This document shows, piece by piece, positions 596 through 6,374 of a DNA stretch of 6,374 bases. The notes below the pieces were generated by a model, which was not told the origin of the DNA, searched no databases, and saw only the letters and a program-made list of their open reading frames with translations. The translations under genes and the position numbers were made by a program. The first letter of the stretch is position 1. Each line of letters begins with the position of its first letter. Source of the stretch: Octopus sinensis (taxonomy: Eukaryota); the NCBI RefSeq assembly GCF_006345805.1, contig NW_021829358.1, positions 1 through 6,374 on the forward strand, read 5' to 3'.

Positions 596-1255
596 TTATA
601 ATAACCCTCTATCATAATTTTCTGGTTGCAGAAAACACTGTTTGGTGGCTCGACAAATACCACCGAAGACCCACTGTTTTGGTAAAACTCTTCCAGAGTT
701 GTTTTTCCGTTTGGAAAACACTCTCGTCTACCTCCACACATCATACCAGGACCACCTGAAATAAACATTAATAATACCAATTTTGCCGTCAGATCTTTTA
801 ACAAGTGCGTCCACACAGACTTCACGTAAAAACATAGCCCAATCGACATATGTATGTTCACCCCAATTGTATTCGTGATGAAGCCATTTGAAGGTATGCC
901 TATCGTAACTCCATAAGTATATGTAGGCGATGACATCCTCAAATGGCAATCTACAATTCTCTAACCAGGTATCTAGAATTATTTGAGAGAAATTATACCT
1001 TTTTTAATAGAACATTGGACTCTACAACCAACTCTGAGCATTTCCAATTGAGCTTCGGTCCCAAGACTAATTCCATCTGATGTCCCTTCGGACATATACG
1101 TGATTTTGAAAGGATATCCACATTTTGCAGAAAATGCACTGCATCCTCCTTACTTATTGGGAGCTGTCGGAATTGATGTTGCATAAGTCCACAACAGAAT
1201 TTTCCATGTGACCTATAGTGCCAGTTTATATCAATATTAGGTACATGCTCGCCAT
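596..1255 (-). pseudogene. Merlin/ISXO2-like DDE transposase, N-terminal half, frameshifted, intron-containing
   Basis: Removing introns 1244-1213 (tentative), 998-973 and 777-756 and allowing ~3 frameshifts gives [93 protein letters not shown]: Zn-ribbon-like N-terminus plus the first catalytic-D motif. The C-terminal catalytic half is absent. Confidence 0.88.
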
Positions 1256-1377
1256 AATATTAAAAAAATTAGAAAATAAATTAGTAAAAAATTTAATAAT
1301 ATTTTAAATTATTGATAGAGCGACTTAAATAAAATATAATATATTCCACCTCAAAATTATTAGATTTTTTAAAAGGC

Positions 1378-1412
1378 CTAAAAAACTGCGACCACTTCGA
1401 CACAAAAGTACC
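1378..1412 (-). repeat. Right TIR of Merlin element A
   Basis: ctaaaaaactgcgaccacttcgacacaaaagtacc followed by TSD CATTAAAT. Confidence 0.92.
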
Positions 1413-1444
1413 CATTAAATTTAAAAAAGTAAAAATAATTAAAA

Positions 1445-2025
1445 AATGGAAGCATGTTTTAAGTTCCTTGTTCTGTGGATTCTTTTCGCCATCTATAGAC
1501 TGAATTTAACCGTGAATTTAACCAACGAGGCCGTGCATTCACGAAAAATATTCATGTTTTGTCTTAGTGCCAGCAGGATTCTCAAGCTCGCTTCACTGAA
1601 TTACGTTTTAGATGTTCGCTTAGCGCCACTGGATTCCCTTCAGTACTGGAACCAGTTGGGCTAGACCGTGGAAACGGAAAGCGTCCTGACCAGTCTACTT
1701 TATTCCAGTTCAAAATGGGACTTGCCCTCCTATGGGATGTAACATATGTCGGCTCGTTTTCGTCATCAGTGGTCATAGACTATGTTTTCGCACTAGATTC
1801 GCCTCTGCTATGGCTAAAACCAAATGAAATCGCAAAGTATGCTTCCTTGGTCAAAATTTGCTGCTTTGTTCCCCGGGGTTTTGAAAACAGTGGGGTGATT
1901 GGCCAAAAAGCGCTTAAATTCTTCTCATAGATTGGTTTAATCATATCGAAGAGGTCGTCTTTCAACAAGAATCGGTCGAGATATTACGTGGAATTTGCCT
2001 GTCCATCCGCTCAGCGACTAATATA
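1445..2025 (+). mobile_element. Degenerate 3' fragment of CRE-like non-LTR retrotransposon (restriction-like endonuclease domain)
   Basis: Frame 1553-1930 reads HVLS*C...SLSATGFPSVLEPVGLDRGNGKRPD.STLF.FKMGLALLWDVT...IAKYASL....FVPRGFENSGVIGQKALKFF*, then ILRGICLSI at ~1981-2007. This fits the CRE RLE pattern (EP.GL.R.DGKRPDG..WD.T; K..KY..L..F.P...ET.G..G; RGN). Contains stops and deletions; boundaries are approximate. Confidence 0.82.
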
Positions 2026-2027
2026 AA

Positions 2028-5000
2028 TTAAATTGTTCTTTTTTTGTTGTCAATATTTTGTTTTGTCTTATTTGCTACTGGAGGACTTACAATTCCCCAC
2101 AGTTCTTCTTGAGATTCATGTTCACAATCTATAATCAAATGATAGAAATATAAACCTGCATTTGCAGGCTGATTAGAAGATGACTCTAAATCCAGAGATA
2201 GGCGTTCTGGTGGTAAATAATCCCCTTCCATTTTTTCAGAAAATGGAGATAAATGTGGAGGGAGTTTTGTTCCAACAAAGTATTTTTCAACCGAAAGTAA
2301 ACGGCATTCATTAAATGAGTCAAAAATCCACTGTGGTTGAACATACAATCTAATAAATTATTAATAAACATCAAAATAATTATAAAAACAAAGGATTTTC
2401 GGTACTGTTGCATTTCATCCTGCACGAAAATAGCCTCTAAATGAATTAATGAAAATTTTTATGAATATTAGATCGAAAATTTAAATAATTGAACTATGTC
2501 GAATTTGTAAATTTTATTCTAATTTTTTTTTTAAAAAAATTTGAATTTTTTACCGACTTAGTGGTGTCAAAACAATACCGACAAAATTAAATCTGAGCTA
2601 TTAACGACCACCTGTCTAAAAAGACACAGTTGTTGGTTAATAAAGATGCTTATCATCATTCCCTCAGTGAAAAATCTTTATTACAATAAAAAAGGTCAGC
2701 TGGTAGTACGAAGCGTGATATTCGGCGGACAAAATTTGACGATGGCATCTATTAGCTCATCGAAGGAGTTGTCTAAATGGCTCACTTGCCTTCTCCATAA
2801 AAATTCTATAAATGTATTAGGAGTATTTAATACCTGCAAAATATGCACCCATGAAGTGACGCGGGGTCCCCCTTTGTCTCTTATTGCGCCATTTTGCGCA
2901 CCCCCACATTCTATATTTTCATATATAATTATTATCTGAACCTCTCAACATTCTGTGTATGTGCACCTGTGCTCGGATCTACAAAATTTCGTCTGCAAAT
3001 TTATAAACGAATTATGGCCAACTTGTGATTAACTGTAGGGTGCACATAAGCAAGAGCATTGAGATCTGACGATCTGGCTAATAGAACTGACGATCTGGAA
3101 ATAAATGTTCGACACCCACTTTAAAAGCACACCCATGTTGTATCTTCCTGCTGTTGGAGAAGGGTCATAAAATGTCTGTTTTGTCATTTTTTCTTTGGGA
3201 AAGATTCCAACCTCTTGAAGGAAGGCAACTGACTCCATTTCAGTACGGGGAAGTTCATAGTCCTTCAGTTTTGCAAATTTTCGCATGACAACTGTATCAT
3301 TCATCTCCACAAGCCGGTAAAAAATTCAAATTTTTTTAAAAAAAATTAGAATAAAATTTACAAATTCGGCATAGTTATTAAAGATTTCAAAGTACACCAA
3401 TCTCTCGGAACGCTATCTGTTTACCCCGATCGCCGTGGAGACCTCTGGCGTAATCGGTGACAGGTCACTCATTTTCCTCAAAAAGCTGGGTCGTCTGATT
3501 TCTCGCAAGAGAAACGACACGCGTGAGTGTGGATGGCTCCTTCAGAGGATTTCCCTTGCCATTGTACGTGGAAACTGTTTCTCCATCTACGAGGCGGGGA
3601 AGTCCTCTTGTTAACTCTCTTCTCTCTGTTTTCGTTTACAGTTATTATTTTCAAAAAATAAACTCTAATTTCTAAAAAAAAAAAAAGTTCAATTATTTAA
3701 ATTTCGATCTAATATTCATAAAAATTTTCATTAATTCATTTAGAGGCTATTTTCGTGCAGGATGAAATGCAACAGTACCGGATTTTCTTATATTAAATAC
3801 CTGTTTATATAATTTTTTACACAATTGGATCTGTCAGAAATTTCATGTGTTATAGTCTCGTCCGACTGACCAAAAGACGCACCTTCGGCTATATTGCAAT
3901 CCCATGATACTTCCCCTGAACAATTTCTTTGTACATAAATAACAATAACAAACCGAATGACGAGTGCTACAATATCCTTACGGACTTCACGACTGATGAA
4001 GAACTTAAGACCTTTAAACAAGACCTTCTGTCTATTAATCCTTTCCTGTTCATCCCTAAACTGCTGAATACGCACATCTTTAGAACCATTTGGTCCGACC
4101 TAAAAAATAAAATAAAACTAACTTGAGAATCATTAAAAACATCCAGAGTAATCTCATCATCAGTGATCACATTAATTGCATTATTTGATTCAAGCGGATA
4201 ACGGATGCCCAAAGATTGAAAAAGTCGAAAATTAATGAAAGTAAGCAGTTCACAATAAAATTCTGCAAATGTGTCCATTATTCGGAAATCCACATCCTCT
4301 GGCTCCTTAAGAAATATTTATATAAAATTTAAGATTTATTCATAAAGCTATATTTTATAGTAAAATCTTTAGCTATTGGAAAAATGTACTTTATAAGCGA
4401 AACAATGTGGAGAAATCCATCTTGTTCTTATCCCCTCGAATTCAGCCTCATAATAAATTCCCTTAATACTGATAAAAATCTAAAATAAAAAAACATTGAA
4501 ACAATACTTTACGAAGTGCCTTTTTGGCAATTATAAATGTTTGTATATCTCCTTTCAAATAATAAAAATAATTTAACCACACAGTTGTTCACATTTCTGG
4601 ATAAGGGATTTAATACATTTAATACATTTAATACATTTCATAATACCTTTCTATAATTGACTTCTCTAGAGTATAAGAAGGGGCAATGTCAACAATCTTT
4701 TCTATATGTAACTTGTCCCCTTTTGATTCGGCCTTTAATAATTTCCTTTTATAAACCTATAATTGTAAAAACATTTAAGTACTTTAGTTTCTCTAAGTAC
4801 ATCGATAATTGGTTCACGTAATAATTTTTTAATGCTGCGTCTTAAATAATATGTTTTTGGAGCCATGCTTCCTTTCCCAGCTTGTTTTTTATTAGTTGGC
4901 TCTCGAGGATAGATTCCTTTTAAAATACATACTCGCCTTTTGACATTAAGATCAGAGAAATATAAAACCTAAAATCAGCCAGGGAGATTTGTAATTTATT

Positions 5001-5198: not shown

Positions 5199-5541
5199 AT
5201 GCACTCAAGGAAGTAAAAATTTTTCATTTGTAGGGAAATTAAATTAAGACGAAACCTGTTGATGCTTTCTTTAACATGTCTGATTCTCATTGTTTTCGTA
5301 CTTAATATGTGAAAATCTATCCTTCTGTAATTTAATTTCAATTTAATTGCATAATTTTCATATATAATTCGCCTAAAGTTGGATTAACTTAGTTATTAAG
5401 TTTAACTTTTCTGATACGAATACTTTATTCAGAGAAAATATGCAAACAGCAATATATTTTATTTCCACAAAAATATTTGGTATAGAATGAAAATGATTCT
5501 GTACATTAAAAAAAATAAAGTCTAATGTAATAAAATACTGA
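5199..5541 (+). CDS. Possible small or truncated single-pass membrane (signal-anchor) protein, divergent from PES1
   Basis: Hypothetical exons 5199-5212, 5234-5297, 5393-5479, 5521-5541 with GT-AG introns of 21, 95 and 41 nt give MHSRKEIKLRRNLLMLSLTCLILIVFLLSLTFLIRILYSEKICKQQYILFPQKYLSNVIKY*. No family recognised. Confidence 0.33.
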
Positions 5542-5552
5542 CTAATTGAGCT

Positions 5553-6290
5553 CAATTCCCCAGTGATACCCGTTTTTTGTGCAAGATTCGGGACGGCATT
5601 CTGGTTTGATTTCGAAAAAATAGGATTTGTCGTAGCTGATCTATGTGAAAAGAATTAAGCTTTTGTATTTCTGTCTTGCTTAACTCATGTTCCCTAGTCA
5701 TTAGTGAATTATAAAGACAAACTCACGTTATCACGTCAAGTCATCTGCGAGCGGGCCAGTTCATCCTCAATTTATATATTGCGCCATAATTAGGTGTCTT
5801 CTTGTTTTAATATCGTCTGCATTGCCGAGAAGGAAATCCACTTTTGTAGTTTTTAGCTCTTCTTTATCGTTGGAGACAAAGAAAAAGATTGTTCACCTGA
5901 TAGTAGGTGACCAGCAGGGTCCCTGCAGGTTCATCTTTCCTCTTCAATTTCTTCTAATGAACGATTCATCCAAGTGATTCGAGTAGAACTTTTGCGTGAA
6001 GGTCTGCTGCAATCAGTATTGACGTAGAACGTGCATATTTAGCATTTTCAGTCAAGAGATTTGCATATAAGTCGTCGATCTTTTCGGCATTTTGTTCAGT
6101 CATTCACTATGCGGAGGTATGCATTTATGATAGTATATATTTTTTGAGTCTCCTTTAGCAGTAGATTTTGGCAGCTGTGTCGTTTCTCACAGCAAAGGCA
6201 TGTCTGTAGTGTTTAGAATTACTGGAGTAGAATATTAATCTATAAACACCATTTTGTGCTTCCATCCCGTCGGATATTTTGCTTTAAATG
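5553..6290 (-). mobile_element. Degenerate RTE-like non-LTR retrotransposon: APE endonuclease remnant plus post-RT C-terminal remnant
   Basis: Fragments across frameshifts and stops: KISDGMEAQNGVYRLIFYSSNSKHYRHAFAV, TIINAY, KIDDLYANL..ILIAADLHAKV (cf. IAGDFNAKVG), RGKMNLQG, LLVTYYQVNNLFLC at ~6290-5870; and LYNSLM..LSKTEIQKLNSFHIDQLRQIL..MPSRILHKK at ~5722-5553. Boundaries are uncertain. Confidence 0.72.
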
Positions 6291-6374
6291 GTTCTATTCT
6301 TTTCCATTTGTTAATGGGTCCCTTGTGTGAGTTTTTTGCACAAAAAATGTAATTTTGTCTTTAAAAATATCCGT

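Follow-up and report, generated by a model that had tools for sequence, protein, structure and literature searches.

The DNA analyzed here, called the window, is a complete contig of 6,374 nucleotides (nt) from the Octopus sinensis assembly GCF_006345805.1 (NW_021829358.1, labeled C5829 in our set; the assembly comprises 2.72 Gb in 13,516 contigs). It contains two internally deleted Merlin transposable elements, which represent families A and B, and is likely of dicyemid origin. The transposase genes of these families are split by five or six GT-AG segments of 22-34 nt, which are likely U2-type spliceosomal introns that the host machinery would remove. Judging from the DNA, we put the probability of this reading at roughly 0.9. 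New in Merlin are the host-level intron density, the tiny intron size, and the visible intron turnover. The mechanism is not new: other superfamilies include transposases with several introns, and Merlins with a single intron turned up in other eukaryotes.

The original prediction had proposed six introns on the minus strand of the window. All six segments were found at their coordinates with GT and AG ends (1244-1213, 998-973, 777-756, 3022-2993, 2941-2911, and 2833-2806; 32, 26, 22, 30, 31, and 28 nt, respectively). Five of them hold as coding introns; the tentative segment 1244-1213 does not. A spliced aligner was written for the analysis, using a profile of eight intronless chromosomal Merlins, and the intron positions were not supplied to it. 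This blind alignment returned the five introns of full-length A copies and the three introns of window element B. On the window's own A element, it found 998-973 and chose a wrong neighbor for 777-756 because of the frameshifts at 739 and 720. No intron was called in the chromosome-type controls L006, L011, and L021 or in the intronless families C, D, and H, apart from one doubtful call in a frameshifted family C copy in a later run. Weak calls were set aside (L235, L240, L255, L258, and L260 with a gain of <8 bits; L256 with three stacked calls), and family G (L135) was left out of scoring as too decayed. In a boundary test with a profile of 12 outside relatives, 256 donor-acceptor pairs were scored, and GT-AG ranked best in all three families, with margins of 30, 23, and 9 bits. 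When gaps were left unconstrained, they coincided with the introns in place and length in families A and F; in B2, one site differed in length.

Full-length A copies (1401-1405 base pairs [bp]) contain the proposed segments and have five introns of 26, 22, 26, 23, and 26 nt. After removal of all five, 4 of the 12 near-full copies (from a count of 21 rows, two of which are one copy) had an open frame of 309-313 amino acids (aa). The unspliced frame stops at 76 aa, and retention of any single intron limits the product to 76-275 aa. The expectation that intron removal restores the frame was therefore borne out in intact A copies, which are open to 309 aa, and failed in window elements A and B, where frameshifts and deletions leave no whole frame. 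The ratio of nonsynonymous to synonymous substitution rates (dN/dS) over the spliced exons was 0.17-0.22 in all seven scorable B-clade pairs (five more distant pairs were saturated), indicating purifying selection on these exons.

The element introns resemble those of host genes, as had been predicted. The 23 element introns span 22-34 nt (median 27, AT content 0.78), and the 15 host introns span 23-32 nt (median 26, AT content 0.76); the lengths did not differ significantly (p = 0.16). Most element introns (21/23) start with GTW. The host set excludes three introns of the window gene PES1, namely one of 84 nt, the one bearing element B (64 nt when empty), and one near 4646 that was not resolved. 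Tiny size is therefore not universal among host introns. With five or six introns in approximately 930 coding bases, the element density is 5.4-6.5 per kb. Dicyema japonicum genes have a mean of 6.2 introns per 1,155 bases, or approximately 5.4 per kb (PMC6736024), and the median dicyemid intron is 27 nt long (PMC6543705).

The assignment to Merlin is based on ends, duplications, and protein similarity. Merlin elements are defined by terminal inverted repeats that begin with GG and measure 24-462 bp, together with a target-site duplication of 8 or 9 bp (PMC8101967). Both families have terminal repeats starting with GG (approximately 38 bp in intact A copies, approximately 165 bp in B), and both window elements are flanked by a perfect 8-bp duplication. 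Against the Pfam profile PF12762 (DDE_Tnp_IS1595), single exons were scored: exon 3 of an intact A copy reached 28.3 bits (cutoff, 27), the core exon of family F reached 41.7 bits, and none of the four window exons matched. The spliced A protein, scored with a profile of intronless PF12762-matching Merlins, gave an E value of 3.8e-74. In three conserved blocks, acidic D, D, and E residues line up with their counterparts in intronless Merlins, and the catalytic role of these residues is established knowledge. Judged by these sequence features, the window elements are true Merlins. They belong to two distinct families, as originally supposed; A and the B clade are 49% identical in amino-acid sequence. 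The additional suggestion that open reading frame (ORF) searches miss such elements was shown in part: the window exons went undetected, and the best exon of an intact copy passed the cutoff. Six-frame or ORF searches are thus weakly sensitive to these elements (28 bits versus 70-92 bits for intronless copies).

Several lines of evidence bear on the source of the window. DNA searches with elements A and B gave matches on unplaced contigs only and none on C1-C30; this covers the matches listed, from 40 of 140 (A) and 40 of 360 (B) scored candidates. One unplaced contig, C9061, carries family A copies together with Pax6. The paired domain of this Pax6 is 99% identical to that of Dicyema acuticephalum (the other 119 listed matches are ≤79% identical), and the full proteins share 391 of 408 residues (96%). 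Contig C9061 thus comes from D. acuticephalum or a close relative. The spliced aligner used for the elements predicted seven introns of 23-30 nt in this gene. Seven is also the number established from complementary DNA (cDNA) of D. acuticephalum Pax6, in which the mean intron is 26.2 nt long (PMC2222250), and this agreement supports the aligner on cDNA-verified tiny introns. Two PES1 genes were found in the assembly: the one on chromosome C25 has kilobase-spaced exons, and the introns of the window gene are mostly 23-32 nt. As the window has the same element family and its PES1 introns are tiny, it is likely dicyemid itself and not part of the main mollusc genome. A ciliate source was considered, as ciliates also live in cephalopod kidneys, and was set aside because of Pax6 and the standard code on these contigs. 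Hemocyanin arrays are present on C5 and C28, two contigs of chromosome scale; they mark the main organism as a mollusc, likely a cephalopod, and a fish host with a myxozoan was set aside on this ground. When a PES1 exon was used in a homolog search, no match was obtained at E 0.001 among five candidates, and the identification was made with Pax6 instead. A second dicyemid PES1 copy that would represent the empty site of B was searched for and not found. Dicyemids were present in 75% of sampled cephalopods (PMC12953835), and myxobolids and dicyemids are named as the sole animals found with introns so short (PMC13644364). A co-assembled dicyemid genome appears to be present on unplaced contigs (e.g., C9061, C8591, C12762, and C8702; up to approximately 1 Mb), and contigs of this type include three Pax genes whose introns are tiny. 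A mollusc assembly with a dicyemid genome among its unplaced contigs would confuse host repeat and gene annotation.

Further families were recovered from unplaced contigs by an exon search and 20 fetched regions, and intron positions were expressed in outside-profile numbering. Family A has introns at 61, 126, 200, 219, and 262. B and B2 have six (61, 126, 200, 219, 236, and 262), five of them at the positions used in A; a full-length transposase gene with six introns, as had been anticipated, thus exists in the B clade. E and F have introns at 61, 126, and 236, and B3 at 61, 126, 200, and 262. The six related families thus have three, four, five, or six introns, with 61 and 126 common to all of them, and three intronless families (C, D, and H) occur alongside. 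The intron-bearing families form one clade (support 99/95 and, in a second tree, 96). C, D, and H are placed elsewhere in the tree, and C and D lie on contigs that also carry A. In B3, which has approximately 81% identity to B2, introns 219 and 236 are absent at exact length from all four spanning copies, on four contigs; the 236 junction is letter-perfect. Since 219 is also present in A and 236 also in E and F, loss in B3 is the simpler reading. Two adjacent exact losses are likely the result of recombination with spliced cDNA, a route favored to explain how introns were lost from CACTA transposases, for which short repeats can also give exact deletions (PMC4158355). In family B (L090, L129, and L170), the intron at 200 is 27 nt long, in frame, and free of stop codons; if retained, it would lengthen the protein by nine residues immediately behind the second catalytic aspartate and cause no truncation. 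Intronless family D (L010 on C9705 and L012 on C12622; 1357-1358 bp) has 9-bp target duplications versus 8 bp in the intron-bearing families and is possibly a recent arrival.

The A and B families also show indirect signs of mobility. Among 29 other A loci, 18 have both ends, and 7 of these have perfect 8-bp duplications; in the B family, 16 further loci have both ends, and 9 of them have such duplications. Fifteen of 17 A copies, which lie at different sites, differ from copy L035 by ≤0.4% substitutions, and this near-identity points to a recent spread of family A.

For comparison, 79 eukaryote-type Merlin relatives from metagenome contigs (L183-L261) were analyzed. An intron improved the alignment by >8 bits in 14 of them and was credible in 13, with one or two introns of 44-74 nt each. 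The contrast with intronless relatives drawn at the outset is weakened by these 13 loci; the density and size of the dicyemid introns remain unusual. Introns in Merlin are therefore not unique to dicyemids, and it is their number and size that stand out within this sample. Of 31 loci spanning all six dicyemid positions, 22 have no intron and 9 have one (two of these weak). Among spanning loci, the positions 61, 126, 200, 219, 236, and 262 were matched in 0/40, 0/52, 0/66, 1/64, 0/62, and 0/53 cases. The lone match, L201 at 219, has the same phase and sits on a different branch. Within one metagenome clade (L187, L189, L200, L206, L207, L209, L218, and L201), an intron of 51-61 nt at 171 is patchy and single introns occur at 90, 131, and 219, a sign that Merlin introns turn over in some other eukaryote too. 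Among the nearest proteins in the databases (such as P0005), some may derive from RNA.

How might these elements work and change? Intact A copies would be transcribed and spliced like ordinary host genes, and transposase would be made only from fully spliced mRNA. The protein would attach to the terminal repeats, cut out the element, and insert it again with an 8-bp duplication; deleted copies, including both window elements, would likewise be moved. The host would tolerate an insertion such as that of B in a PES1 intron as long as the enlarged intron can still be removed by splicing. The lineage has likely resided in dicyemids for long, with at least three of these introns in the ancestor and six on the A+B branch, followed by loss of one intron in A and of two adjacent ones in B3, the latter likely via spliced cDNA. 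As for their origin, we lean slightly toward the view that Merlin entered dicyemids intronless, gained all six introns, reached host density and size, and now sheds introns through its own mRNA, with intronless newcomers on the same contigs. The introns could instead be real and inherited, if Merlin was already split on entering dicyemids and its introns then shrank with those of the host. We consider this possible and clearly less probable. It would agree with the 44-74-nt introns in 13 of 79 relatives and with the L201 intron at the position and phase of 219, and eukaryotic Merlins have been thinly sampled. However, the other five positions were never matched and 219 only once, no locus among the 31 spanning all six has more than one intron, and L201 belongs to another branch, among relatives lacking the 219 intron.

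The remaining explanations concern the nature of the segments. A regulatory switch in the style of the P element, in which transposase is confined to certain cells through the splicing of a single intron or of the 32-nt segment upstream, is unlikely. Retention of any A intron does truncate the protein, with the 32-nt segment removed, a short upstream frame would become an out-of-frame one of 24 aa that overlaps the start, and P-element and Ac precedents are mentioned in PMC4158355. Yet the element introns look like ordinary host introns in GTW starts and length, and families that lack different introns still spread, so no single intron is a conserved switch. From the sequence, regulation of the transposase by splicing finds no support beyond the truncations on retention. 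Removal from DNA during somatic genome rearrangement, in place of splicing, is very improbable. In its favor, chromatin is eliminated in dicyemids (PMC6543705), and two of the segments are missing from the genomic DNA of B3 copies. This explanation is countered by the GT-AG ends, by the match to cDNA-verified Pax6 introns, by the restriction of the segment-less form to one subfamily approximately 81% identical to B2, and by the lack of any cleanly segment-less A copy in the alignments shown. Finally, a single A copy contains 108 GT..AG stretches of 18-40 nt, and the copies have many small indels, as might be expected if the segments had arisen as random AT-rich insertions or through misassembly of dead elements. 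That idea is refuted by positions and phases kept in families that are approximately 50% identical and have unrelated intron sequences, and its probability is negligible; the top rank among 256 pairs and the purifying selection also contradict it.

Some observations weigh against spliceosomal introns in a dicyemid Merlin lineage as we describe them. Small indels, likely read errors or decay, leave 8 of the 12 near-full A copies without an open frame, and no fully intact B-clade copy was present among those fetched. The grouping of A with B is weak (97/74 in one tree, open in another). In B3, the 219 junction is exact in length and contains substitutions, and it could reflect a deletion that slid by two bases. 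Splicing itself was deduced from DNA. The window does not contain Pax6, and its assignment leans on family A copies on the Pax6 contig, on the tiny PES1 introns, and on the second PES1 on C25.

Comparison with known systems places these elements as follows. They differ from the Merlin superfamily, which is related to IS1016/IS1595 (PMC8101967), by their five or six introns of 22-34 nt. The metagenome Merlins belong to the same transposase clade, and one shares position 219; they usually have no intron, or else one (two in L201), which is longer and at another position. Plant CACTA elements also encode multi-intron DDE transposases (1-6 exons), with family-specific losses attributed to reverse transcription (PMC4158355). 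They belong to another superfamily and kingdom, and their ancestral introns were mostly lost, whereas those of dicyemid Merlins were apparently gained and, unlike in plant CACTA, also lie inside the catalytic core. Dicyemid host genes have introns of 26-27 nt at approximately 5.4 per kb coding sequence, like the elements (PMC2222250, PMC6543705, and PMC6736024). Unlike these genes, the transposase gene is mobile and multi-copy, and spliceosomal introns cannot be accommodated in its prokaryotic relatives. Our literature search found no report of intron-rich Merlins or of a dicyemid Merlin; the 2004 founding paper and Repbase, which lay outside its scope, may describe intron-bearing Merlins. The available text of a Merlin survey (PMC8101967) does not mention introns, splicing, or Dicyema, and its 11 supplements do not mention introns or Dicyema. 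Neither Merlin nor transposons are mentioned in the available texts of PMC6543705 and PMC6736024, and one supplement of the latter lacks Merlin, IS1595, and transposase.

Tc1 and P elements have one to three introns, and their transposase expression depends on host splicing. Regulation by splicing is known for the P element and is hypothetical for the dicyemid Merlins. Intron gain in animals is hard to catch. Families with three, four, five, or six introns beside three intronless ones make it possible to map gains and losses on a tree. If the introns were gained within the lineage, this mobile gene family would document ongoing gains and losses of introns in one of the two groups of animals whose introns are shorter than 30 nt, and the number of introns would mark the residence time of the transposon in its host.

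Elements A and B, their exons and introns, and the PES1 intron that carries B are on the minus strand. Element A spans 514-1412 (899 bp) between the two copies of its duplication (506-513 and 1413-1420, plus strand); its terminal inverted repeat at 514-544 pairs with 1380-1412. Exon 1 (999-1207) starts with the ATG at 1207, the in-frame start of intact A copies. It is followed by the phase 1 intron at position 61 (973-998, 26 nt), exon 2 (778-972), the phase 1 intron at position 126 (756-777, 22 nt), and the start of exon 3 with the first catalytic block (622-755). One-base deletions affect exon 1 at 1174 and 1035, further frameshifts lie at 739 and 720, and a deletion of approximately 500 bp at approximately 621 takes out three further introns. 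The segment at 1213-1244 lies upstream of the start codon and is at most a 5' untranslated intron. As a coding intron it was rejected, since its removal from intact A copies gives a frame of 24 aa. It fits the window copy only through a one-base deletion, with two A's versus three in 16 of 18 other copies (two were unreadable).

Element B (2401-3779) is inserted in an intron of PES1 (2350-3800, 64 nt without B by subtraction) and flanked by its duplication (2393-2400 and 3780-3787, plus strand). Exon 1 (3105-3304) starts with the ATG at 3304 and is followed by a deletion of approximately 480 bp near 3076-3104, with which the first three introns were lost. Three introns remain: a phase 2 intron of 30 nt at position 219 (2993-3022), which is also present in A and absent from B3 and E/F; a phase 2 intron of 31 nt at 236 (2911-2941), also present in E/F and absent from A and B3; and a phase 1 intron of 28 nt at 262 (2806-2833), also present in A. 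The last exon (2696-2805) ends at the stop codon. An insert of 313 bp with a poly-A end (3377-3689, plus strand) lies inside a B terminal repeat and elsewhere occurs without B. Together with 1568-1930 (plus strand) and L083, it resembles the 3' end of a non-long terminal repeat (non-LTR) retrotransposon with a poly-A end. The pieces contain what we take to be an endonuclease-like motif; no Pfam match was obtained for the nested insert and its relatives. Non-LTR elements of this kind would supply reverse transcriptase for intron loss.

The host gene in the window may be damaged or incompletely represented. At approximately 4646-4600, PES1 seems to lack a conserved stretch (profile positions approximately 120-150), and a 9-bp unit is repeated three times there; the cause may be a misassembly or a damaged allele. 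Near 2030, PES1 gives way to sequence that resembles a retrotransposon (2000-1500), and the 3' end of the gene may therefore be interrupted or wrongly assembled. Fragmentary reading frames were present at 5200-6374 and 1-400, and two that were tested gave no Pfam match. In the same contig set, L083 contains at 2430-3311 an intronless open frame of at least 294 aa, which by eye resembles a Tc1-type transposase.

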